Of a stretch of 64,000 bases of DNA, positions 25,792-47,420 are shown one piece after another. The notes below the pieces were generated by a model. The model was given only the letters and a program-made list of their open reading frames with translations. It was not told where the DNA came from and made no database searches. Each line of letters opens with the position of its first letter. Within the stretch, counting starts at the first letter, position 1. A program made the position numbers and the translations under genes. This DNA is from an uncultured Eubacteriales bacterium (GTDB lineage Bacteria > Bacillota > Clostridia > Oscillospirales > UBA644), in the NCBI GenBank assembly GCA_959604355.1, contig CAUHAO010000007.1, positions 9,778 to 73,777 on the forward strand. The letters run 5' to 3'.

Positions 25792-25832
25792 ATACTGTAA
25801 AATGATTGATTTTAAATTTTTCGGAGGATTCA

Positions 25833-27356
25833 ATGCGAAACATCAGAATTCTCGACACGACATTGAGAGACGGAGAACAGGCTCCCGGCTACTCTATGAA
25901 CACAAGAGAGAAAATCGAAGTGGCACGCCAGCTTGAAAAGATGGGCGTGAACGCGATCGAAGCGGGATTTGCCGTGATCAGCAAGGGAGACGCGGACAGT
26001 GTCGCCAAAATAGCAAAAGAAGTACATAACGCGTATGTATGCTCGCTTGCGAGAGCTTTGCGCAAAGATATAGACGCCGCAGCCGACGCGGTGCGCGGCG
26101 CGTCCCTTCCGATGATCCACACGTTTCTCGCTACGAGCGACATACATCTCGAATACAAGCTCAAAAAGACGCGCACACAGGCGCTCGAAACAATATCCGA
26201 GGCTGTGAATTACGCGAAAAAGTTCGTGTCAGAAGTCGAATTTTCCGCCGAAGACGCGACGCGAACGGATATAGACTTTCTCTGCCAGGCGGTCTCCGCC
26301 GCGATAAAGGCGGGCGCGACGGTTATAAACATTCCCGACACCGTAGGCTATGCGACGCCCGATGAAATTGCGTATAGGATAAAATACCTGCGCGAGCACG
26401 TTGAAAACATCGATAAGGTTTGTCTTTCAACGCATTGTCACGATGACCTCGGTCTTGCGGTTGCAAACTCGCTGGCGGCAATAAACGCCGGGGTTCAGCA
26501 GGTCGAGGGCACTATAAACGGTATCGGCGAACGTGCGGGTAACGCGGCTCTCGAAGAAATAATAATGACCCTGCACACAAAAAAAGAACTCTACGGCGCC
26601 GAAACGTCCGTGAATACGAAAGAAATATCGAGAACATCGAAGCTCGTGCAGATGGTGACGGGTGTGAACGTGTCTCCGAGCAAATCAATCGTCGGTGCGA
26701 ACGCGTTCCTGCACGAAGCAGGCATACACCAGCACGGAATGCTTGAAAATCCGCTGACATACGAAATAATAACGCCTGAAACTGTCGGCGCGACCTCGTC
26801 AAACTCTCTTGTTATCGGGAAGCACAGCGGCAGACATGCCTTTGACGCAAAAATAAAGGAACTCGGCTACGACCTTAGTGAAGAAATGCTCGGAATACTT
26901 TTCGAGGACTTCAAAAATCTCGCAGACAAGAAAAAAGACATCCACGACCGCGATATAGAAGCGCTCATTCTCAAAGCAAAAGCGAAATACAACGAACACA
27001 TGTTCCGACTCGTGCATTTCGTCATCACCTGCGGTGACGCTTTTTCTACCATCGCGTCGGTGACCATAGAGCAGGACGGCAAGACAGCGGAAGGTGTTTC
27101 GGACGGCGACGGCCCTATCGACGCGGCTTTCAAAGCAATCGAAAAGAGCATAGGCCTTCACTTCCAGCTCCTTGAATTCTCCATAACTGCGGTCACGGGC
27201 GGCAAAGACGCTCTCGGTACCGCAAAAGTACGTCTGAGATATGAAAGCAAAGAAATCACCGCCGTCGGTATTTCCACCGATATCGTGGAAGCGAGCATCT
27301 ACGCGTATCTTAACGCGGTAAATGAACTCGTTCCCGAACTTAAACTTAAACTGTAA
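25833..27356 (+). CDS. leuA: 2-isopropylmalate synthase
   Basis: The start MRNIRILDTTLRDGEQAPG is preceded by GGAGG. HCHDDLGLAVAN motif. C-terminal LeuA-dimer regulatory domain. Confidence 0.88.
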   Translation: MRNIRILDTTLRDGEQAPGYSMNTREKIEVARQLEKMGVNAIEAGFAVISKGDADSVAKIAKEVHNAYVCSLARALRKDIDAAADAVRGASLPMIHTFLATSDIHLEYKLKKTRTQALETISEAVNYAKKFVSEVEFSAEDATRTDIDFLCQAVSAAIKAGATVINIPDTVGYATPDEIAYRIKYLREHVENIDKVCLSTHCHDDLGLAVANSLAAINAGVQQVEGTINGIGERAGNAALEEIIMTLHTKKELYGAETSVNTKEISRTSKLVQMVTGVNVSPSKSIVGANAFLHEAGIHQHGMLENPLTYEIITPETVGATSSNSLVIGKHSGRHAFDAKIKELGYDLSEEMLGILFEDFKNLADKKKDIHDRDIEALILKAKAKYNEHMFRLVHFVITCGDAFSTIASVTIEQDGKTAEGVSDGDGPIDAAFKAIEKSIGLHFQLLEFSITAVTGGKDALGTAKVRLRYESKEITAVGISTDIVEASIYAYLNAVNELVPELKLKL

Positions 27357-27372
27357 CGGCAATGAGGACATC

Positions 27373-28965
27373 ATGAAAATCCATACATTCGACACAACAT
27401 TGAGGGACGGAGCGCAAAGCGAGAAAATACTTTTCTCCGCCAATGACAAACTGCGAATCGTCAAACTTCTCGACTCCCTGCATATAGATTATATCGAGGT
27501 CGGAAATCCCGTCTTCAATCCGGCGGAGGAGCCATTCCTCGAGGAGTTGCAGACGCTCGAGCTCAAGCATTCCCAGATAGTAATGTTCGGAAGCACATGC
27601 AAGGCGGATATGTCGCCCGAGAACTCCCCCGTTCTTGCAGCGCTCGGACACGAGAAATCTCCCGGATACTGCTCAGTTTTCGGCAAAGCGTGGGACCTGC
27701 ACGTACACGACGTACTGAACACCACGGAAGAGGAAAATCTGCGCATAATATCCGAAAGCATAAAATTCCTCAGGCAAAAAGGGAAAAAAGTCTTCTTTGA
27801 CGCGGAGCATTTCTTCGACGGTTTCAAATCGAACGAAGAATACGCGCTCAAAGTAGTGAAAACAGCGCAGGATGCAGGCTGTGACGCAGTCGTTCTGTGC
27901 GATACAAACGGCGGCACGTTCCCGGATGAGATAAAGGTGATAACGGAAAAGGTCGCGGCGGCCTGCTCCGTCGACATAGGCATACATTGCCACAACGACA
28001 TGGGACTCGCGGTAGCAGACACTCTCTCCGCAGTCGCGGCGGGCGCGGTGCTCGTCCAGGGCACTCTTAACGGCATCGGCGAAAGATGCGGCAATACGAA
28101 CCTCGCAACGGTGATAGCAAACCTGCAGCTCAAACTCGGCAATGACGTTCTCGGAGACAAAATCAGGATGCTCTCCCCTGTCAGCCGTGCCGCGGCCCAG
28201 ATATCGAACCTCAATACTGACGGACTGCCTTACATAAGCCGCAGCGCGTTTGCGCACAAAGCCGGCATGCACATCGACGCGGTGATGAAAAACCCTCACA
28301 CATTCGAGCACATCGACCCATCGTCCGTCGGAAACGCCCGCAACATACTTATTTCGGAAATGAGCGGAAAAAGTGCGATATATCCTTACGTCCAGCGAAT
28401 CGTCCCGTCTATGGACAAGGACAGTCCCGCGATGGACAGGATACTGGCTGTGATAAAGAAAAAGGAGGCGGAGGGGTATCACTACGAAGCGGCTCAAGCC
28501 TCTCTTGAACTACTGATAAAACAGGAGCTCGGAATCTTTACCCCTCATTTTATCCTTGAAAAATTCAAGCTCATCGCAGAGCAGACAAGCGTTGACAACC
28601 CTGACGGATGCAATTACGCGTTTCTCAAGGTCTCCGTATCGGGAACGACAGAAATGGCGGCGACGGAAAGTGACGGTCCCGTTCACGCGCTCGATGACGT
28701 TATTCGAAAGGCGCTCCATGGGTTCTACCCTGCGCTCAACGAAACGCGGCTGATAGATTATAAGGTGAGAGTGCTCGACAGCCGTTCTTCCACCGGCGGC
28801 AAAGTCCGCGTCTACATCGAGGCGACCGATGGGCACGAAACATGGGGTACTGTCGGTGTTTCCAGGGACATAATAGAAGCGTCCAAAACGGCTCTTATTG
28901 ACGCGGTGGAATACAAGCTCTGTATGGAAGACCAACTGAAGAGCTCAGCCTCAAAACATTCTTAA
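27373..28965 (+). CDS. cimA: (R)-citramalate synthase
   Basis: MKIHTFDTTLRDGAQSEKILFS, HCHNDMGLAVAD, and a length of 530 aa with a long C-terminal regulatory domain typical of CimA-type DRE-TIM synthases. Distinguishing CimA from a LeuA paralogue needs a profile search. Confidence 0.7.
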   Translation: MKIHTFDTTLRDGAQSEKILFSANDKLRIVKLLDSLHIDYIEVGNPVFNPAEEPFLEELQTLELKHSQIVMFGSTCKADMSPENSPVLAALGHEKSPGYCSVFGKAWDLHVHDVLNTTEEENLRIISESIKFLRQKGKKVFFDAEHFFDGFKSNEEYALKVVKTAQDAGCDAVVLCDTNGGTFPDEIKVITEKVAAACSVDIGIHCHNDMGLAVADTLSAVAAGAVLVQGTLNGIGERCGNTNLATVIANLQLKLGNDVLGDKIRMLSPVSRAAAQISNLNTDGLPYISRSAFAHKAGMHIDAVMKNPHTFEHIDPSSVGNARNILISEMSGKSAIYPYVQRIVPSMDKDSPAMDRILAVIKKKEAEGYHYEAAQASLELLIKQELGIFTPHFILEKFKLIAEQTSVDNPDGCNYAFLKVSVSGTTEMAATESDGPVHALDDVIRKALHGFYPALNETRLIDYKVRVLDSRSSTGGKVRVYIEATDGHETWGTVGVSRDIIEASKTALIDAVEYKLCMEDQLKSSASKHS

Positions 28966-38609: not shown

Positions 38610-40430
38610 TTATTTTGCGCTGGCCGAACCGAGAGTAGTGCCGCCGAGAATGAAGGTGTATTCGCCTCCCGGAACGAGCCCTTCGGAGCATATCAATATG
38701 CATCCGTATGCTTTCGGGGGTATGATATCGAGGAGTGCCGATGACGAGGCGTCAACGACTTTGAGCTGAGTGTCAGCCTTACCGTCGAGAGACACGAAAA
38801 TATACGGCTGTGAACCGCTTGAAACGCCCTGCGCCATGCCTGTGCTGCCCAGAGCGATGAGTGTACCGCCCGTAACGGTGCAGGATCGGTCATAGTCGAG
38901 TGCCGCGTTGCCGTTATCCGTCGGACCGTAGACGAGAACATATCCGCCCGTCATTTCGACTGTGCCGTTGGAGTCTATGCCGTCACCAGAGGCGTTGACT
39001 ATGTATTTGCCGCCGCTTATTTTTATCTCTCCGCTTGATGACGAGAACATACCCATACCAGGTCTGCCGGAAATGGAAGATGAATCCGAGCCGCCGGCAG
39101 CATTAAAGCCGTCATCTGTTGCGATTATCGAGACATCCCCGCCCCGAAGGTCGAGAGTCGCCGCCTCGAGACCTTCATAACTCTTATTTATCATTATCGT
39201 GCCGCCGCTTATAACGAGCGTATCATCGGCATGGATGCCGTCGTCGCCCGAGCAAATACGAGCGCTCGCGCCGCTTATGATCACATTGCCGTTACAACAT
39301 ATACTGTCGTCGGAGGAATCTATGTCGAGCGTGCCGCCCGATACCGTGATATTATTCTGCGCTTTAAGACCTTTCGCACTTTCTGTATCCGATGAGGTTT
39401 TTGAACTTTCCTTTCCTCCCGGGGCTCCTCGTCCTCCGGGGCCGCCCATACCGCCCGCAGACCATTGTCCCCAGCCGCCGGGTCTACCAGCAGATGAAGA
39501 AGTGCTTGAATTCACACTGCCGCCGCCCGTAACAAGAGTAATTCTTCCTCCGGTAACGTTTAGATCTGTTGCCGCCTGAATCGCGTCATGCGTCGAGGTT
39601 ATGTTGACAGTTCCGCCATCGACATTGATATACCCTTTTCCGTCATCCGTATTTTTCGTTTTCAGCCCGTCGTCGCCCGCAGTAACGGTAACCGAGCCCG
39701 ATGCTATGATAACGGAATCCTTCCCGACAATCCCGTCGCCGACTGCCGTTACGGAAAGTGTCGCTTTTTCAAAACGGAAATCATCCTTTGTGTGTATGCC
39801 TTTTTCGTAATTTGCATTAATATTGAGTACGCCTTGACCCGTTATTTTGAGGTCATCGCGGCTGAATATGCACGCGTCCTCTTCCTCATCACCCAAAACA
39901 AACGTGTATTCCGCGCCGTCCGTGAGAGTGTTTTCTGTACCCTCTTCAAGTTCGATAACAAGTTTGTCCCCGACGTTGGCAACATATATCGCCGCGCCGT
40001 TTCCGCAAGTCACATTGATGCCGCCGAAAACAAGCTTTGTCTTTTCGCTGTCGGAAGAATCAACAACTATGCGCCCGTTGAACGTGCCTTTGAAATAAAA
40101 TGTTCCAGACATATTTACAGTCACGGTCGAGCCCGAAACAGATGCCCCCATGCCTGAAATCTGCGCGGTATTTCCGAGAAGAGTTACCTTAGCGGTATAC
40201 GTTTTTGTATCAGAAGGAGCGTCTTGAGGTGAATATGTTGAACGCTCTGTCGGAACGTCCGTTGCTTCATCCGAAGGAATTTCAGAATCAGCATCCGTGA
40301 AGGCTTCCGTGCGTCTCTCTGTCGGTGTTGAAGACGGGGATTCCGTAGAATATACGGGGATTTTCACATCACAAGCAGAGAGAATTATCACGAAGCAGAC
40401 AAGGAGCACCGCAAAAGATCCGAACTTCAT
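38610..40430 (-). CDS. Lipoprotein with repetitive right-handed beta-helix-like repeats (Cthe_2159/DUF4353-like carbohydrate-binding family)
   Basis: The start MKFGSFAVLLVCFVIILSAC (lipobox) has AAGGAAG upstream. A Ser/Thr/Pro/Asp-rich linker follows. Repeats are of the type GDDGIHADDTLVISGGTI, TDDGFNAAGG and SGDGIDSNGTVEMTGG. There is an internal Gly-rich tract GGMGGPGGRGAPGG. The 105-codon upstream extension in the track is rejected. Confidence 0.65.
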   Translation of the reverse strand: MKFGSFAVLLVCFVIILSACDVKIPVYSTESPSSTPTERRTEAFTDADSEIPSDEATDVPTERSTYSPQDAPSDTKTYTAKVTLLGNTAQISGMGASVSGSTVTVNMSGTFYFKGTFNGRIVVDSSDSEKTKLVFGGINVTCGNGAAIYVANVGDKLVIELEEGTENTLTDGAEYTFVLGDEEEDACIFSRDDLKITGQGVLNINANYEKGIHTKDDFRFEKATLSVTAVGDGIVGKDSVIIASGSVTVTAGDDGLKTKNTDDGKGYINVDGGTVNITSTHDAIQAATDLNVTGGRITLVTGGGSVNSSTSSSAGRPGGWGQWSAGGMGGPGGRGAPGGKESSKTSSDTESAKGLKAQNNITVSGGTLDIDSSDDSICCNGNVIISGASARICSGDDGIHADDTLVISGGTIMINKSYEGLEAATLDLRGGDVSIIATDDGFNAAGGSDSSSISGRPGMGMFSSSSGEIKISGGKYIVNASGDGIDSNGTVEMTGGYVLVYGPTDNGNAALDYDRSCTVTGGTLIALGSTGMAQGVSSGSQPYIFVSLDGKADTQLKVVDASSSALLDIIPPKAYGCILICSEGLVPGGEYTFILGGTTLGSASAK

Positions 40431-40522
40431 ATAAAATCTTCCTTTCATCTTTTCGTCTTTTATTATATGCTGAATTTTCGGTATAAAAATGAATTTCGGG
40501 AAAATTTTTGTGGCTAACACAC

Positions 40523-40551
40523 TTGATTTTGCATCGCAAATGTGATATATT
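40523..40551 (+). promoter_or_regulatory. Sigma-A promoter of the lyxose-isomerase-like gene
   Basis: TTGATT, 17 nt, then TGaTATATT. Confidence 0.6.
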
Positions 40552-40581
40552 ATACATAGGAAGAATATAAGAGGAGAAAAA

Positions 40582-41274
40582 ATGAAGAGATCAAAGATAA
40601 ACTCTATGATAAAGGACGCGGAACTGCTTTTTGAGCTCAACGGATTCCGCCTGCCGCCTTTCGCATACTTGATGCCGTCGGAATGGCTTACAAAAAGCGC
40701 ATCGTATTCAGAGCTGAGGCATAACGGCCTCGGCTGGATGTGCACGGACTTCGGCGCGGATCACGGCGCTGTTATACGCTTCATTCTTCGCAGAGGCGAC
40801 CCTGAAGCAGAGAAATACCGAAAACCGTATTCGGAAGAAATATTCATGTGCAGGAAAGGTACGAGTGTTCCTCCGCATTGCCATTTAAGCCGCATGCAGG
40901 ATATTGTCAATCGGGGCGGCGGGGTTCTCACGGTAAGGATACTCGGCACACGGAAAGGCATGGAAAACGTGACTCTGCGCAAAGACGGGTTCACCTTCAC
41001 CGTGCATCAGTACGGTTTAGTGAAGCTGTGCGAAGGCGAGAGTCTGACTATACCCGCCGGCTGTATACATGAGATATGCGCGGACGGCGACGACGTGGCT
41101 GTGTCGGAAATATCGACATTCATGTGTATCACCTCCGACGACTATTTCACGGTAAGGAAGCCCGCACGGTCCCTGAAACTTGAAGAAGACGAACCCCCTT
41201 ACAGACTTCTCATATCCGACTATAAAAATCTGTCGGCCTGCATTCGGAAAACAGTCTCCGACGACAAAATTTAA
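40582..41274 (+). CDS. D-lyxose/D-mannose family sugar isomerase (cupin)
   Basis: MKRSKINSMIKDAELLFELNGFRLPPFAY...GLGWMCTDFG...KYRKPYSEEIFMCRKGTSVPPHCH matches the D-lyxose ketol-isomerase family pattern. Confidence 0.8.
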   Translation: MKRSKINSMIKDAELLFELNGFRLPPFAYLMPSEWLTKSASYSELRHNGLGWMCTDFGADHGAVIRFILRRGDPEAEKYRKPYSEEIFMCRKGTSVPPHCHLSRMQDIVNRGGGVLTVRILGTRKGMENVTLRKDGFTFTVHQYGLVKLCEGESLTIPAGCIHEICADGDDVAVSEISTFMCITSDDYFTVRKPARSLKLEEDEPPYRLLISDYKNLSACIRKTVSDDKI

Positions 41275-41363: not shown

Positions 41364-42389
41364 ATGGAAAAGAAAAACATTGACTGGTCCAATCTCGGTT
41401 TCGGATATATCCAGACCGATAAAAGGTTTATTTCCAACTATAAAGACGGTGCGTGGGACGAAGGAACACTTACGTCCGACCCGAACGTCGTTATCAACGA
41501 ATGTGCATGCGTACTGCAATATGCGCAGACCTGCTTTGAGGGTCTTAAAGCCTACACCACAGAGGACGGACATATCGTAACGTTCCGCCCCGACCTCAAC
41601 GCGGAACGTATGGAACAGTCCGCGGAGAGACTTGAAATGCCGGTTTTCCCGAAAGAGAAATTCATCGACGCTGTCGTGAAGACCGTTGAGGCAAACGAAG
41701 CATACGTTCCTCCGTACGGCTCGGGCGCAACGCTCTACATACGCCCGTATATGTTCGGCTCAAACCCTGTCATCGGCGTTAAGCCCGCGACAGAGTACCA
41801 GTTCAGAATTCTCGTCACACCCGTCGGACCGTATTTTAAAGGCGGTGTACGTCCGCTCAATCTGCGTATAAGCGATTTCGACCGCGCGGCGCCCCACGGC
41901 ACAGGACACATCAAAGCGGGTCTTAACTACGCAATGAGCCTTCACGCGATAGTTTCCGCGCATAAAGAAGGTTTCGACGAGAATATGTATCTCGACGCTT
42001 CGAGCAGAACGAAGATCGAGGAGACAGGCGGTGCAAACATCATCTTTGTGACCAAAGACAACAAAGTTGTCACCCCCAAGTCTTCAAGCATCCTGCCATC
42101 CATCACCAGACGTTCCCTGATGTATGTCGCAAAAGAGTACCTCGGACTCGAAGTCGAGGAACGCGACATTTACCTTGCAGAAGTTCCTGACTTCGTCGAG
42201 TGCGGCCTCTGCGGCACTGCGGCTGTCATCTCCCCCGTCGGCACGCTCAACGACCACGGGAAAGTCATCACCTTCGCAAACGGCTGCAAGGAAATGGGCC
42301 CCGTTACAAAGAAGCTTTACGAGACTCTCACAGGTATCCAGATGGGAAAAATCAAGGCTCCCGAGGGATGGATAAAAGTAATAAAATAA
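41364..42389 (+). CDS. ilvE: Branched-chain amino acid aminotransferase (class IV)
   Basis: WSNLGFGYIQTD..., LQYAQTCFEGLKAY and TGGANIIFV. 341 aa. Confidence 0.92.
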   Translation: MEKKNIDWSNLGFGYIQTDKRFISNYKDGAWDEGTLTSDPNVVINECACVLQYAQTCFEGLKAYTTEDGHIVTFRPDLNAERMEQSAERLEMPVFPKEKFIDAVVKTVEANEAYVPPYGSGATLYIRPYMFGSNPVIGVKPATEYQFRILVTPVGPYFKGGVRPLNLRISDFDRAAPHGTGHIKAGLNYAMSLHAIVSAHKEGFDENMYLDASSRTKIEETGGANIIFVTKDNKVVTPKSSSILPSITRRSLMYVAKEYLGLEVEERDIYLAEVPDFVECGLCGTAAVISPVGTLNDHGKVITFANGCKEMGPVTKKLYETLTGIQMGKIKAPEGWIKVIK

Positions 42390-42409
42390 TTATTTTTCTC
42401 ATATTTTCA

Positions 42410-42438
42410 AGGCGGAAGAAAATTCTTCCGCCTCTTTT
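42410..42438 (+). terminator. ilvE terminator
   Basis: aggcggaagaa-aa-ttcttccgcct followed by cttttcg. Confidence 0.75.
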
Positions 42439-42533
42439 CGTACATGATTTATAAAAAACTGATAACAAAAAACGTTGTTTGTCGCAGTTCCTTTGATTTC
42501 TTGCAAATTTTTCCGCAAATGAAATGAAAACTA

Positions 42534-42562
42534 TTGATTTTACACAAAAGAAGTGCTATAAT
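42534..42562 (+). promoter_or_regulatory. Near-consensus sigma-A promoter of the membrane-protein/MutS-like operon
   Basis: TTGATT (42534-42539), a 17-nt spacer, then TGcTATAAT (42554-42562). The first ATG of the track ORF (42534) lies inside the -35 element and is therefore not the start. Confidence 0.7.
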
Positions 42563-42596
42563 TAAGAAAACTTATAGAATATTTCGAGGTGACACC

Positions 42597-43298
42597 GTGG
42601 AATTTCTGAGACTCATCGCATTGTTGCTGGTGTATGTCGGAGGCGGACTTTTCCTGCTGTTTGCGGTCATCTTCCCGATATTAAGATACATAGTATGCCG
42701 CATATTTTTATTCATCAGATGCCTTTTCTGCCGCGCCGAGTTTTCGGAAGTCGGCTTTATGCGCTGTCTTATACCGCATTTCGGCGATAAACCCGATATT
42801 CTGTTACTTTCCGGCAAAAACCTTTACGCTATAAAACTCATTTCTTTCCGAAAAACGAAAAAGACCGTCGTTTTTGCTTCCGATAAATACTGGGAAGTCG
42901 AAAACATCATACCTAACCCCCCGTCGGACAACGAAGGCGCCGCAGGAATGCTCTTTGTAAAATGGCACGAATTGCGCGTATTCCGTCACACTCGGCGAGC
43001 CCCGTACGGTCTTATAAAATATACCGCGAACATAAACAAAGCCCTCGCGGACGAAAAAATCGACTGTGTTCCCGTATACTTATTCAGCCCGTCGGTAAAG
43101 CAGCTGCGCACACTCACGAAGGTCGATATGCTCAACGGCGACACTACGTTCTACGGCGTGGTGGTCGGCAACGGATTTTACCCTGACAACGCAAAGCGCA
43201 GCGACCTTGACGCGAAGGAAAGCCGCCGAATCATGAAGACGGCAAAGAAAGCGCTTCGAGTCAAACTTCCCAAAGAAAGGAAAGGTTCAGCAACATGA
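42597..43298 (+). CDS. Membrane-anchored protein of unknown function (first gene of the MutS-like operon)
   Basis: The GTG start has GAGGTG 5 nt upstream. Hydrophobic N-terminus (LRLIALLLVYVGGGLFLLFAVIFPIL), a soluble approximately 150-aa domain, and a Lys/Arg-rich tail. The stop overlaps the next ATG (ATGA). Confidence 0.6.
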   Translation: MEFLRLIALLLVYVGGGLFLLFAVIFPILRYIVCRIFLFIRCLFCRAEFSEVGFMRCLIPHFGDKPDILLLSGKNLYAIKLISFRKTKKTVVFASDKYWEVENIIPNPPSDNEGAAGMLFVKWHELRVFRHTRRAPYGLIKYTANINKALADEKIDCVPVYLFSPSVKQLRTLTKVDMLNGDTTFYGVVVGNGFYPDNAKRSDLDAKESRRIMKTAKKALRVKLPKERKGSAT

Positions 43299-44878
43299 AA
43301 CTCTTCTTCGATCCGATAAAGACACCGCCGCAGCCCGCAAAACCCCTTGACAGATGTGTTGCACAGGATATGCAGCTCGAAGAACTGCTGCATAATTTCA
43401 TAGCGGACAGGGAAATGGAAGGCTCCGTTTACGACGTTGTGATGGATTTTTGTAGCGACGGAGACATAATCCGATACAGGCAGAATATTCTCGGAGACCT
43501 CATTTACAGCGATGATGTTTACGGTATGTTCACCGCGCTCAAGGATAATCTGTTTGAACTGAAAATACTGTTTGAAATGGAAATGTTCAAACAAATACCC
43601 GAAATGAAATCCATGAAAACGTTCCTCGTGACGGAAAAATTCGTTGACATATATACAGCGCTTCTCGGACGCGCGAAAGCGGCTAACAACTCTTCCCTTT
43701 CCGCGGAAACGAAAAAAATCATTGAAGATATCTGCGATGCGACGCGTGTGGCTGAGCTTGACACGATACGCAAAGACCTTGAAGGACTTCGCGAAAGCCT
43801 CAAAGAGCTTGAAAGGATACGTTTCAACCGCTTTTTCTCACGAGGTCAGAATATAGAAAACAGCATCATTCCCGCCACGAAAGAAAAATCCGTTACAACG
43901 GATATCGCCGAACTTGCGAAATGTATGGGCCTTGACGTGACGGAGGCGGAAGCCTGTGCACTTCAGGCAAGCCGCGAAATGACGCGCCCCGTATTCATCG
44001 CACTTTACAATGAATATCATCACATTTTCGAGCAAATAGACGCCTTCCATGACAAATACAACAGCACATTCGACATCGAATGGATAAACGTTATTCCAAA
44101 GCTCAACGCGATACTCGGCTTCGCGATAATGTATCGCCGCCTCCGAGAACGCGGATTTGCCATCGCGAAAGCGACGCAGGCGCCGTTGACAAACGTGAAC
44201 GGTCTTTACAGTTTCTTTCTTGTTGACAAAGGCCTCACGCCCGCACAAGTAGTGAGCAATGATTACGTCTGCACCGACGACACGTCGTTCTTCTTCATAA
44301 TGGGTCCCAATGCGGGCGGCAAGACGATATTCCTTTCTTCTGTCGGTCTGTGTCAGCTCTTTTTCCAGGCGTGCGGATTCGTTCCCGCTTCACGCGCGCA
44401 GATCAAGATAATGAAAAGAATGTTCACACACTTCCCCGTCGAGGAATACAATGACAACTCGGGCAGGCTTGTCGAAGAGCAGGGACGTGTTGAAAAGATA
44501 TTCGGAGATGTCACCGACGGTGAATGTCTTGCGCTGTTCAACGAAACATATTCCTCCACGAAAGCGGATATAGCGTATAAGCTCTCCGTAGAGCTCTGTG
44601 AAAAAGCCCGTGCCACGCGTCTTTCGGGAATTTTCGTCACCCACCTGCACTCACTCAAGGATTACGCCCGCGAGACCGTCTGCCGTGCGCCTCATATCGG
44701 AGCTCTGACGGCGATGAAAGATAAAAGAACGGGCGCACGTACATATAAGATAGTTCCGATGAGCGACCAGAACTCGTCCTTCGCAAAGGATATCCTCGAA
44801 AAATATGACATGACCGTTGAACAGATATTCGACAGAATACAAACAAAGCAGAAGGAGGACAAAGCTCATGTTTCCTGA
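43295..44878 (+). CDS. MutS-family ATPase paralogue A (core/lever-like region plus domain V; no mismatch-binding or nuclease domain)
   Basis: Walker A FFIMGPNAGGKTIFL, Walker B region CLALFNETYSST, FVTHLHSL motif, and an N-terminal helical region with IRYRQNILGDL, which resembles MutS domain III. Confidence 0.8.
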   Translation: MKLFFDPIKTPPQPAKPLDRCVAQDMQLEELLHNFIADREMEGSVYDVVMDFCSDGDIIRYRQNILGDLIYSDDVYGMFTALKDNLFELKILFEMEMFKQIPEMKSMKTFLVTEKFVDIYTALLGRAKAANNSSLSAETKKIIEDICDATRVAELDTIRKDLEGLRESLKELERIRFNRFFSRGQNIENSIIPATKEKSVTTDIAELAKCMGLDVTEAEACALQASREMTRPVFIALYNEYHHIFEQIDAFHDKYNSTFDIEWINVIPKLNAILGFAIMYRRLRERGFAIAKATQAPLTNVNGLYSFFLVDKGLTPAQVVSNDYVCTDDTSFFFIMGPNAGGKTIFLSSVGLCQLFFQACGFVPASRAQIKIMKRMFTHFPVEEYNDNSGRLVEEQGRVEKIFGDVTDGECLALFNETYSSTKADIAYKLSVELCEKARATRLSGIFVTHLHSLKDYARETVCRAPHIGALTAMKDKRTGARTYKIVPMSDQNSSFAKDILEKYDMTVEQIFDRIQTKQKEDKAHVS

Positions 44879-46391
44879 ATTTGACCTTCTCTACAAGAAC
44901 CCGAAAAAGACCTCTCCGTCCAAACAGCTCGACATGTCGATGGAAAATCTGCTGCTCAAGGAGGTCATCGACGGGATTACCGTCAATCCGATCTATGAGC
45001 GCAAAATGTTCGAATTACTGCGTTATCCCGAGCAGGACGTCGAAAACATAATCTGGCGACGCGACGCTCTGATAGATTTCAAGCAAAACGAATCTCTTTT
45101 GCATGAATTTGAAAAGATAGATGAAGCAGATAAAGAACTCGAAGAGTCCCTTAAAATAATCAAAAGAAACTCGTCCACAGTCCAGATATCGGGCAACAAA
45201 ACAAAGAGCTCGGATAAAGATTCCTCCGTATCGACCGTCAAAGTTCTTGCGGACTGCGTAGTCAAAGCGCTTAAAATATACGACATGTACAAAGCCGCGT
45301 TCGGAAGAGCGCATATCAAGGCGGAAATATTCGTTAAAATGAGTATGTTCGTTGACGATATCACATCCCGCCCGGAATTCGGCAAACTCTCAGAACTTGC
45401 ACAGCAGCTTTCGGACTCCATCGACTTGAGCACTTCGTTTGTCATTCTCGCAAAAATCGACAAATACCTGCGTATCTGCGACTGCGAAATGTTCCGCATC
45501 ACGAGCGATCCGTATTTCTATGACGAAAAATCTGGCACGCGCAAGGATAAAGACAAGGACATATCTTTTATCGGCTTTGACGAGGTTTCGGACCAGCAGC
45601 TGCAATTCTTCGCAGAGCGCAGTATGATAAAACTCGCGTCATTGCTTGAATCGATTGTGCGCCAACTTCGCAGACCTTTTGAGAAACTCTCGGCCGGATT
45701 TTTCTTCTACGATTTTGCACCGATATACGAAAGAGCACTCGAAAGTCTCGGTCTGCCCTGCTGCATGCCGGAATACAACACCGAGGGAAATCGCTTTGAG
45801 TGCGAAAACATCTACGACGTATGGTATTCGCTCAAGCAAAGAGAGAAAGACCGCGACGCCGTTCCCGGCAAAACTCTTGTACCAAACGACGCGATATTAG
45901 ACGCAGATTGCGCGGCATATATCATAACGGGTAAAAACAATGCAGGCAAAACCGTCTTTCTGCGCGCTGTCGGACTTATTCAGGTATTCGGTCAATCGGG
46001 ACTCCCCGTTCCCTGTACGAAAGCGGTTATCACTCCTGTCGCGAACATTTTCGCATACTTTACCGCGCTCGATATCGGTCAGGGACGCTTTGAAGAAGAA
46101 GTCGAGACTTGCTCTGGCTTTATCGATACCATGAAGCCCAAAGACATGCTGCTTTTCAACGAGGTATATCAATCCACGGCTTACGATGAAGGCTCTCTTG
46201 CATTGTGCGAATTCATCGCGATGTCCGCGGTATACGGCGCAAGGGTGATTTCTGTAACACATTTACCCGATATAAAGAAAAATCTTGCTGCATTACAGCA
46301 AAAATACGGCTTCAAAGGCACTGTCCGATACGCGAAAGCAGAAGAAAAGGACGGACAGAGCACACACAGATTTATACCCGACGAAAATTGA
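44868..46391 (+). CDS. MutS-family ATPase paralogue B (core/lever-like region plus domain V; no mismatch-binding or nuclease domain)
   Basis: The start MFPEFDLLY has GAAGGAGG 9 nt upstream and overlaps gene A by 11 nt. Walker A YIITGKNNAGKTVFL, Walker B region MLLFNEVYQSTAYDEG, and SVTHLPDI. Confidence 0.8.
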   Translation: MFPEFDLLYKNPKKTSPSKQLDMSMENLLLKEVIDGITVNPIYERKMFELLRYPEQDVENIIWRRDALIDFKQNESLLHEFEKIDEADKELEESLKIIKRNSSTVQISGNKTKSSDKDSSVSTVKVLADCVVKALKIYDMYKAAFGRAHIKAEIFVKMSMFVDDITSRPEFGKLSELAQQLSDSIDLSTSFVILAKIDKYLRICDCEMFRITSDPYFYDEKSGTRKDKDKDISFIGFDEVSDQQLQFFAERSMIKLASLLESIVRQLRRPFEKLSAGFFFYDFAPIYERALESLGLPCCMPEYNTEGNRFECENIYDVWYSLKQREKDRDAVPGKTLVPNDAILDADCAAYIITGKNNAGKTVFLRAVGLIQVFGQSGLPVPCTKAVITPVANIFAYFTALDIGQGRFEEEVETCSGFIDTMKPKDMLLFNEVYQSTAYDEGSLALCEFIAMSAVYGARVISVTHLPDIKKNLAALQQKYGFKGTVRYAKAEEKDGQSTHRFIPDEN

Positions 46392-46438
46392 ATAGCATTA
46401 TAAAAAAAGCCTAAAATATAAGCGAAAGGAGCTTTTAT

Positions 46439-46756
46439 ATGGAAATAATGAAATTAACATCCGAAAACTTTGAAGAAGAGGTACTTGAATCAGATATTCC
46501 CGTACTCGTGGATTTCTGGGCGGAATGGTGCGGTCCCTGCAAAATGATGTCCGCAGTCGTGGACGATGTTGCAAAGGATATTCCCGAAACCGCCGCAAAA
46601 ATAGGAAAGATCAATGTGGACGAAGAGCCCGACCTCGCTCAGCGTTTCAATATAATGAGCATTCCCACGCTGATACTCTTTAAAGACGGAGAAATCGCAG
46701 AGACTTCCGTCGGCGTAAAGCCAAAACAGTTCATCGTTGACCTTATCGAAGAATAA
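46439..46756 (+). CDS. trxA: Thioredoxin
   Basis: WAEWCGPCKM active site. 105 aa. Confidence 0.95.
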   Translation: MEIMKLTSENFEEEVLESDIPVLVDFWAEWCGPCKMMSAVVDDVAKDIPETAAKIGKINVDEEPDLAQRFNIMSIPTLILFKDGEIAETSVGVKPKQFIVDLIEE

Positions 46757-46760
46757 ACAC

Positions 46761-46791
46761 AAACCGCTGACGTACTTTCCGTCAGCGGTTT
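46761..46791. terminator. Terminator hairpin between trxA and pduL (convergent)
   Basis: 12-bp perfect stem aaaccgctgacg/cgtcagcggttt with a 7-nt loop. Confidence 0.7.
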
Positions 46792-46810
46792 GCTTATGTA
46801 ATAAAGAACA

Positions 46811-46850: not shown

Positions 46851-47420
46851 TTACAGAATTATTTCACCGTAGACATTGCCTGCAATAGCCGCAGCGTTTG
46901 CCTCATCGGTATCGATATGCATAGCGGGAGCAAATTTCGGGCTGACACGAACAACGACGTCGCCGAAAATAAGGCTTCTGCCGTCTGTGTTGACCTTGAC
47001 GCTGACGATCTGCTTATCCTGAACTCCTGCCGCCGCTGCGGTCTCGGGAGTGAAGTGGATATGTCTCTTTGCGACGATAACGCCCTCGGATATCTCAACT
47101 TCGCCGCAGGGACCGACGAGTTTAAGACCGGGAGTGCCTGCGATATCGCCTGATTCTCTTACAGGGGGCTTTACGCCGAGAGTTCTCGCATCGGTAAATG
47201 AAAGCTCTACCTGCGTTGCGGGACGTGTAGGTCCGAGAATGGAAACTTTGAGTTCGCCTTTAGGTCCGACAAGTGTGACTTTCTCTTCACAAGCGAACTG
47301 ACCGGGCTGGGAAAGATCCTTTTTATTGGTAAGTTTATGGCCCTCGCCGTAAAGCTTGGCAAGGTCCGCGTCTGTAACATGGATATGACGTGCGGAAGTT
47401 TCAACGAGTATTTCAGACAT
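46851..47420 (-). CDS. pduL: Phosphate propanoyltransferase / PduL-type phosphotransacylase
   Basis: Duplicated PduL motif (ETSARHIHVTDADL and VAKRHIHFTPE). 189 aa. Confidence 0.88.
   Translation of the reverse strand: MSEILVETSARHIHVTDADLAKLYGEGHKLTNKKDLSQPGQFACEEKVTLVGPKGELKVSILGPTRPATQVELSFTDARTLGVKPPVRESGDIAGTPGLKLVGPCGEVEISEGVIVAKRHIHFTPETAAAAGVQDKQIVSVKVNTDGRSLIFGDVVVRVSPKFAPAMHIDTDEANAAAIAGNVYGEIIL

Follow-up and report, generated by a model that had tools for sequence, protein, structure and literature searches.

The MutS4 proteins were defined by Lin, Nei and Ma in 2007 as consisting of MutSac only, and are usually encoded by two adjacent genes, MutS4A and MutS4B (PMC2190696). The MutS4A stop codon overlaps the start codon of MutS4B, the distribution of the pairs is patchy, and their function is unstudied (PMC2190696); they have received almost no attention since they were named. 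Mycobacterial examples were described by Kim et al. in 2017 (PMC5742357). Here we describe a relative of these pairs from an uncultured Eubacteriales bacterium. It lies in a stretch of 64,000 nucleotides (nt) of contig CAUHAO010000007.1 (assembly GCA_959604355.1). This stretch is termed ‘the window’, and positions are given in its numbering; other loci (L001, L003, etc.) are cited in their own coordinates. The locus consists of three genes, termed ‘the trio’, that encode a membrane-anchored protein, ORF1, and two short MutS-like ATPases, subunits A and B:

42597-43298, plus strand: ORF1, 233 amino acids (aa), with a GTG start codon at 42597
43295-44878, plus strand: subunit A, 527 aa, a MutS4A-like short MutS
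44868-46391, plus strand: subunit B, 507 aa, a MutS4B-like paralogue of A

The ATPase pair belongs to the already named MutS4A/B kind, and is not a new kind of system. The original prediction for this stretch, made from its sequence, had put the operon forward as a candidate uncharacterised system. That description stands in so far as no function is known for it, but not as regards its kind (PMC2190696). We consider it rather probable, if far from certain, that the trio acts as a membrane-tethered, heterodimeric, MutS4-like ATP-driven switch or clamp, and are much less sure of any particular ligand.

Two substitutions in the ATPase domain mark these proteins. The Walker B aspartate is replaced by asparagine (hhhhN-E), and the S-T-F trans signature by G-[RK]-[LF], in A, in B and in nearly all of the other relatives collected, which are ~500 aa long and have domain V only. 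Both replacements occur in all MutS4 reference proteins and are absent from the MutS1 and MutS2 references; they are a hallmark observed in this analysis, not a published criterion for MutS4. One distant member of the clade, P0067, has Asp-Glu at Walker B, which suggests a reversion. The Walker A lysine, the catalytic glutamate and the T-H (His) loop are retained in both A and B, in which the motifs are placed as follows:

44303-44326: Walker A of A, GPNAGGKT, residues 337-344
44462-44470: G390-R391-L392 of A, in place of the S-T-F signature
44540-44545: Walker B of A, N416-E417
44639-44644: T449-H450 of A (FVTHLHSL)
~residues 175-190 of A: conserved clamp-tip motif RFNRFFSRGQNIENS, specific to the A family of the trio
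45930-45953: Walker A of B, GKNNAGKT, residues 355-362
46083-46091: G406-R407-F408 of B
46158-46163: Walker B of B, N431-E432
46257-46262: T464-H465 of B (SVTHLPDI)

In a Poisson-corrected neighbour-joining (NJ) tree (472 columns, 200 bootstraps, small sampling), A, B, the other Clostridial pairs and the MutS4A/B references form one clade, separated from MutS1 and MutS2 with 100% bootstrap. Proteins encoded by the first genes of the Clostridial pairs cluster with A (98%), and those encoded by the second genes with B (82%). Among the references is the M. branderi pair WP_083134047/WP_083134046 (L010), the exact accessions given as MutS4A/B by Kim et al. (PMC5742357), and a tblastn search of plasmids with B brought up pairs with such an overlap in Rhodococcus, Mycobacterium, Alicyclobacillus, Burkholderia and Enterobacteriaceae. 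MutS4 and the trio are thus alike in belonging to the same 100% clade and in carrying Asn-Glu and G-[RK]-[LF]. They are alike, too, in length (~500 aa), in having domain V alone detectable by sequence, and in being encoded by adjacent, same-strand paralogues with overlapping or abutting stop and start codons (the overlap is 4 nt at reference loci L009-L011). They differ in other respects. Identity between them is 23-33% only, mostly in the ATPase half. MutS4 proteins have G-K-[LF], against G-R-[LF] in the trio; the His loop is degenerate (T-F) in MutS4 subunit A, and T-H is retained by both subunits of the trio. MutS4 loci lack an ORF1-like membrane protein. And the MutS4 reference pairs have fluoride riboswitches ahead of them and belong to fluoride-resistance clusters, often on plasmids, whereas the trio has no riboswitch and lies in a chromosomal housekeeping context.

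MutS_V (PF00488) is the sole Pfam domain in A (residues 334-461, E 3e-12) and in B (352-478, E 4e-15); no MutS_I, II, III or IV, Smr, HNH or NERD domain was detected in either by the Pfam scan. The original prediction had correctly picked out the Walker A and T-H motifs, and had correctly described both subunits as devoid of mismatch-binding, Smr and HNH domains. Its conclusion that this is not classical mismatch repair also holds, with mismatch-binding and nuclease domains missing: the profile searches disclosed none that had been overlooked, and no characterised family claims A or B. The two subunits are paralogues over their full length (hhalign E 6.6e-50, 470 columns, ~19% identity). Matches to the MutS, MutS2 and KamC models of NCBIfam are partial and far below cutoff, those to the MutS models scoring 38-60 bits against cutoffs of 480-642. 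‘MutS-core-like’ N-terminal segments, also proposed originally, are borne out by predicted fold (modelled for A) but not by sequence profile, as hhalign against the MutS2 profile aligns only the C-terminal parts (residues 262-514 of A and 296-503 of B). The AlphaFold2 (AF2) model of A, built from a 47-sequence alignment, has a predicted local distance difference test score (pLDDT) of 86.6 and a predicted template modelling score (pTM) of 0.82, with low confidence at residues 178-195 and 221-227. A Foldseek search of the PDB with this model gave 192 matches at E<=1e-3, the best 50 of which are all MutS-family proteins (MutS, MSH2, MSH3 and MutS2; E ~1e-17 to 1e-15, 510-616 columns). Because these matches extend over nearly the full length, the helical N-terminal half of A is predicted to comprise a core and lever of MutS type and a small clamp tip. 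A would combine this helical core/lever and clamp tip with the domain V ATPase and, at the C terminus, a helix-turn-helix (HTH)-like tail. The tail follows the ATPase, as in MutS2; B, otherwise laid out like A, stops before it. The RFNRFFSRGQNIENS motif sits in the low-confidence clamp tip of the model.

The best PDB sequence match of A and B is MutS2, in the form of Bacillus subtilis MutS2 on collided ribosomes (7qv3). Like MutS2 (B. subtilis RqcU/MutS2, 7qv3; Thermus thermophilus core, 7vuf/7vuk), A and B have a co-linear core without domains I and II, and an ATPase domain that begins at about residue 290, and the predicted fold of A matches the MutS2 core (7qv3, 7vuk and 7vuf; Foldseek E ~1e-16, 530-590 columns). 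Unlike MutS2, they have no coiled-coil, KOW (MSSS, PF20297) or Smr (PF01713) C-terminal region, ending at or before the equivalent of MutS2 residue 502 (TIGR01069, 49 bits versus a cutoff of 400); their N-terminal halves have no profile-level similarity to it. MutS2 has Walker B Asp-Glu and S-T-F where A and B have Asn-Glu and G-R-[LF], and is encoded by a single gene—the 7qv3 dimer comprises two identical chains—where A and B are a paralogue pair. Since A and B lack KOW and Smr, a MutS2-type nuclease or ribosome-rescue function is not indicated. With MutS1 and the MSH proteins, A and B share the domain V ABC ATPase and, by predicted fold, the lever/clamp helical architecture. They resemble the asymmetric paralogue heterodimers MSH2-MSH3 and MSH2-MSH6 in being paired paralogues. 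They are ~300 aa shorter than MutS1, have neither domain I (PF01624, F-x-E) nor the connector domain II (PF05188), and carry Asn-Glu and G-R-[LF] where MutS1 has Walker B Asp-Glu and the S-T-F trans signature. The absence of domain I argues against mismatch repair.

The Walker B asparagine is the natural counterpart of the Escherichia coli MutS mutation D693N. The D693N protein still binds ATP, ~15-fold more weakly, coordinates Mg2+ poorly, and still hydrolyses ATP (PMC2857095, Lebbink 2010). The coupling between its DNA binding and its ATPase is lost, and it has partial activity in vivo (PMC2857095). PDB entry 3k0s is among the structure and sequence matches of A and B. The Asn-Glu and G-[RK]-[LF] hallmark thus separates the clade from all characterised MutS proteins, and parallels a mutant of one of them. 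Similar to A and B in length is KamC (NF052383, lysine 5,6-aminomutase reactivase), a 508-aa MutS-like ATPase to which NCBI assigns a non-repair role. A and B match its model with 41.5 and 56.6 bits (cutoff 300), in the ATPase core only.

ORF1 has a single N-terminal transmembrane (TM) helix (approximately residues 3-29), followed by a basic cytoplasmic domain of ~190 aa with a net charge of +13 and a very basic tail. Each of 14 family members has one N-terminal hydrophobic segment, and the next 20 residues carry two to seven Lys/Arg and no acidic residues; this Lys/Arg-rich, acid-free stretch after the TM segment argues for an N-out/C-in topology. P27, R35, D67, K80, P159 and P165 are invariant in the family. 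ORF1 has no match in Pfam, NCBIfam, PADLOC, PHROGs, PDB sequences or plasmids, in agreement with its original description as a membrane-anchored protein of no recognised family. When the 14 family members were compared with Pfam at E<=10, no family, NERD (PF08378) included, was matched consistently. The D67-x12-K80 spacing resembles the strand pair of PD-(D/E)xK or NERD nucleases, but with Lys at an acidic position. Assignment of ORF1 to the NERD or PD-(D/E)xK nucleases is not supported, as there is no profile match and no catalytic D...(D/E)xK; it may yet have a degenerate nuclease-like fold. The AF2 model of ORF1 (5-sequence alignment) has a pLDDT of 41.9 and is confident for the TM helix only. 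ORF1 belongs to a tiny orphan family: it has five close clusters, and a search of 1.84 billion representatives gave only eight clusters at 50% identity. In two other Clostridial pairs (L006 and L021), the genes are preceded by one for a 186-189-aa protein with the same TM and D-x12-K-L layout; this protein resembles ORF1 only weakly (hhalign probability 77%; 10.6 and 8.0 bits).

The trio is flanked by the following features:

41364-42389: ilvE, the upstream gene
42410-42433, plus strand: intrinsic terminator of ilvE, a 10-pair stem (6 GC pairs) followed by a T-rich tail
42534-42562, plus strand: sigma-70-type promoter, TTGATT (42534-42539), a 17-nt spacer ending in TGc, and TATAAT (42557-42562)
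46439-46756, plus strand: trxA, thioredoxin, 105 aa, starting 47 nt past B
46759-46793: bidirectional terminator 3′ of trxA

ORF1, A and B form one operon, with a single promoter-like site and translational coupling, and the ilvE terminator is its 5′ boundary. The promoter just past the ilvE hairpin, and the overlaps that join the three reading frames, had been read accurately in the original prediction. The promoter matches 10 of 12 consensus positions and has the extended -10 TG; the call is a consensus match only, and the region holds no excess of promoter-like sites (11 against 7.8 ± 2.9 expected). The GTG codon of ORF1 is preceded at a distance of 5 nt by GAGGTG (42586-91), and ORF1 homologues begin at the same M-[ED]-F-L residues. 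The ORF1 stop codon and the A start codon overlap as ATGA (43295-43298), and A and B overlap by 11 nt (44868-44878); the B ribosome-binding site, AAGGAGG (44852-44858), lies 9 nt ahead of the B ATG. The suggestion that trxA might be co-transcribed is upheld in part. The gap is as stated, no terminator is predicted between B and trxA, and co-transcription in this genome is possible; a weak promoter-like site occurs at 46388-46417. As a conserved member of the operon, trxA was rejected: it adjoins the trio in the window and at none of the 11 related loci.

Conservation of the three genes as neighbours is complete. The order ORF1-A-B, on one strand, is kept at 12 of 12 loci (the window and 11 related loci), in line with their original treatment as a unit. 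Across the 12 loci the ORF1-A gap ranges from -4 to +16 nt, and the A-B gap from -11 to +4 nt (-1 to +4 nt in the 11 related loci). Identity to the window proteins is 29-43% for ORF1, 35-58% for A and 39-69% for B. A profile scan of 185,579 species genomes with ORF1 (7-sequence alignment) found nine loci, all in metagenome-assembled genomes of uncultured Clostridiales/Eubacteriales, and the titles of several of these point to human-gut assemblies (UMGS, MGYG-HGUT and Hadza). Searched against a database of 5.8 billion proteins, the A family is likewise small and wholly from uncultured Clostridia, as is that of B. The flanking genes vary: ilvE lies upstream in the closest relatives only, and the more distant loci have deoC/pfkB, scpAB, parB, nifSU and pduL as neighbours. 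The gene content of the window is that of an ordinary chromosome (mfd, GH95, two leuA-type genes, carB, ilvE, pduL, sipL and argS), and of the flanking genes that were annotated, at those trio loci that were examined, none is a defence, integrase or transposase/mobile-element gene. The trio appears to belong to the chromosomal housekeeping functions of a narrow lineage, spore-forming Clostridia of the gut, and not to be a mobile defence element.

Among the neighbours in the window is a stand-alone pduL (phosphate propanoyltransferase, PF06130), at most ~0.5 kb from the trio, beyond trxA and on the minus strand (46851-47420). It lies directly downstream of the trio, on the same (plus) strand, at three distant loci (L016, 8009-8563; L017, 10881-11483; L018, 10937-11491). 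This proximity could be leftover synteny or a functional link. A ParB-family gene is directly upstream of the trio in L017 (5969-6763), and scpA-scpB lie ~4.5 kb upstream in L003 (136-1485); with two loci only, the nearness of chromosome-organisation genes may be coincidence. In the window, sipL follows the trio at a distance of 1.2 kb, and spo0A-like genes (Response_reg plus Spo0A_C) adjoin short MutS genes of the Asn-Glu type in two other lineages. In one of these (L005, 6001-7641 and 8863-10503) the MutS gene is a singleton of 546 aa, with a SpoIVB-type peptidase also near; in the other (L007, 5018-5809 and 6001-9136) it is a pair of 515 and 531 aa. A sporulation link of the short MutS genes is possible; sporulation genes are common in these genomes. 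At L006 (4056-7461), small called ORFs of 33 and 137 aa lie between the two MutS-like genes (468 and 486 aa), which do not overlap, and this pair may be a disrupted or rearranged copy.

The MutS4 reference loci are of a different character. At all four of them a fluoride riboswitch (RF01734) lies directly upstream, either of the pair or of its operon, in the following regions:

L008, 4250-7611
L009, 2697-7846
L010, 4719-7867
L011, 4641-7864

This context is not a published MutS4 criterion; it was seen here in these four reference loci. Their neighbours include crcB, DUF190, enolase, Na+/H+ antiporter, universal stress protein and P-type ATPase genes, and several of the loci are on plasmids. 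L009 includes the ppaC-uspA-eno-gpmA-crcB-ATPase genes of the Enterobacter fluoride-resistance island, an island that confers fluoride resistance in that genus (PMC5533749). That mutS genes occur behind crcB motifs had already been remarked by Weinberg in 2010; our literature search found no paper that ties these fluoride-linked mutS genes to MutS4, or that explains their function. They and MutS4 appear to be the same family, and the connection gives this family its first physiological context. In all four fluoride-linked pairs (L008-L011), the first subunit (MutS4A) has Phe for the His-loop His (V-T-F), and the second keeps T-H, which suggests one degenerate and one active ATP site. In a Clostridial branch, the riboswitch context is replaced by a dedicated membrane-anchored partner. 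No RF01734 match at gathering score was found in the window, L001, L003, L006 or L007, and none even at E<=10 upstream of ORF1 (window 42300-42700); nor were crcB, eriC, enolase or antiporter genes found near the trio loci examined.

How might such a switch or clamp work? By analogy with the MutS proteins that have been studied, A and B would form a 1:1 heterodimer through domain V, the natural expectation and the one voiced originally, and this dimer would be asymmetric because only A has the HTH-like tail. ORF1 would hold the dimer at the inner face of the membrane. The binding of ATP would close the two levers, and so form a clamp around a macromolecular ligand. If D693N is a guide, the Asn-type site may coordinate Mg2+ weakly and have a lower affinity for ATP and altered allosteric coupling, with hydrolysis kept. 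The ligand would most likely be nucleic acid at the membrane, which is the least certain step; a role as a nucleic-acid clamp, likewise proposed originally, is suggested by the predicted fold only.

A number of observations weigh against this account. The nearest relatives with any clue from context, the MutS4 pairs, point to fluoride or ion stress, and neither to DNA nor to the membrane. The clamp tips of A and B carry no net positive charge and lend no specific support to DNA binding. As the soluble domain of ORF1 is modelled with a pLDDT of ~42, its role as tether is argued from architecture only; and some Clostridial pairs have no ORF1-like gene (L007 has none, and L022 has an HTH protein instead). 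Within the small-sample NJ tree, A groups with MutS4A with 50% bootstrap and B with MutS4B with 30%; because of these weak groupings we class the window pair as MutS4-like, on a divergent Clostridial branch, and not as a proven orthologue. Finally, the sole experimental report on MutS4 that we found, of raised recombination in Mycobacterium smegmatis, is indirect (PMC5742357).

The account just given competes with three others. In many defence systems a TM effector is paired with an ATPase of the ABC or SMC type, and the trio could be construed in the same way: the MutS-like pair would be the sensor of foreign DNA, and the membrane protein the effector against phages or plasmids, e.g. by membrane disruption or abortive infection. 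Relatives of the pair are horizontally mobile, occurring on plasmids with a patchy taxonomy (PMC2190696), and B weakly matches the AbiLi and AriA models, in Walker A only (E ~1e-3, 20 residues). In PADLOC-DB 2.0, however, ORF1 and A have no match and B only such P-loop matches (~20 residues, E>=1e-3), so that none of the three proteins has a real one. Searches of phage and plasmid databases returned essentially nothing. The flanks in three neighbourhoods are ilvE, citrate synthase, ABC transporters, scpAB, deoC, parB, nifSU, pduL, sipL and argS, and ilvE remains adjacent in the closest relatives; and ORF1, with its single TM segment and large basic cytoplasmic domain, is not pore-like. With databases, neighbours and searches all negative, we now regard defence, one of the roles originally suggested, as very unlikely. 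The fluoride observations raise a different prospect, that the trio does the same job as the riboswitch-controlled MutS4A/B pairs in fluoride, Mg-F or related ion stress, but is constitutive here and membrane-tethered. Clade, gene arrangement and the Mg-site chemistry implied by Asn-Glu are common to the MutS4 pairs, all four reference loci have RF01734 and fluoride-resistance genes, Weinberg had remarked on mutS behind crcB motifs, and a membrane location would fit. Yet no riboswitch or fluoride gene accompanies the trio where these were sought, the low identity to MutS4 is mostly confined to the ATPase half, and the T-F loop of MutS4A is T-H in both window subunits. We consider this role unlikely.

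The pair might, alternatively, act on a protein, either as a KamC-like reactivase or chaperone of a partner enzyme, or as a MutS2-like factor on membrane-bound ribosomes; we think this quite unlikely. A and B match the KamC model (41-57 bits) about as well as they match the MutS models, and second-gene members of the clade match it slightly better. The KamC scores are nonetheless far under the 300-bit cutoff, and no aminomutase, kam or B12 enzyme genes occur among the trio flanking genes examined. MutS-family genes are known from lysine-fermentation clusters (PMC3149608), and this occurrence was all that our literature search on KamC found. A MutS2-like role would accord with the best PDB sequence match, to MutS2 on collided ribosomes, and with a clamp tip that is not basic, but KOW and Smr, which recruit MutS2 to ribosomes according to PMC10897456, are absent from A and B. 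The adjoining of pduL and the trio at 4 of 12 loci would suit a partner enzyme, but pduL is stand-alone and, in the window, on the opposite strand.

A broader proposal, more speculative than that of a membrane-tethered switch or clamp, takes in the entire Asn-Glu clade: MutS4A/B, the Clostridial pairs and the trio. None of its members, on this proposal, would be a DNA-repair protein. All would belong to a distinct class of heterodimeric, ATP-gated clamps whose Mg2+ site has been rebuilt: Asn replaces the Mg-coordinating Asp, and the trans signature includes a basic residue. Fluoride control of MutS4 would reflect a function that is kept, or needed, when Mg-fluoride poisons ordinary nucleoside triphosphatases, and the trio would be a constitutive counterpart, held at the membrane by an anchor protein of its own, and a new three-component machine. 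We hold this to be doubtful. If, in these spore-forming gut anaerobes, the pair turns out to act at the membrane as an ATP-gated clamp, MutS biology would reach beyond repair, recombination and ribosome rescue; if it does not, the trio still offers structural genomics an orphan operon with clean limits.

Some other features of the window deserve mention. Two ORFs at 25806-28965 were considered as a second tandem MutS-like pair, and rejected, as they encode two LeuA-type synthases. The genes (25806-27356 and 27322-28965, plus strand) overlap by 35 nt, and the proteins (516 and 547 aa) have HMGL-like, HCS_D2 and LeuA_dimer domains. One is probably a 2-isopropylmalate synthase, and the other a paralogue of the citramalate or homocitrate type. 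A search of the whole 64-kb window at Rfam gathering thresholds found no RNA family (tRNA, riboswitch or leader), which is unusual given the presence of leuA, ilvE and carB. An ORF of 711 aa on the minus strand (38610-40745) contains a Cthe_2159 carbohydrate-binding beta-helix domain, and has a long N-terminal extension that overlaps the region of a divergent lyxose-isomerase gene. Its true start is probably an internal Met that precedes the signal-peptide-like segment MKFGSFAVLLVCF...

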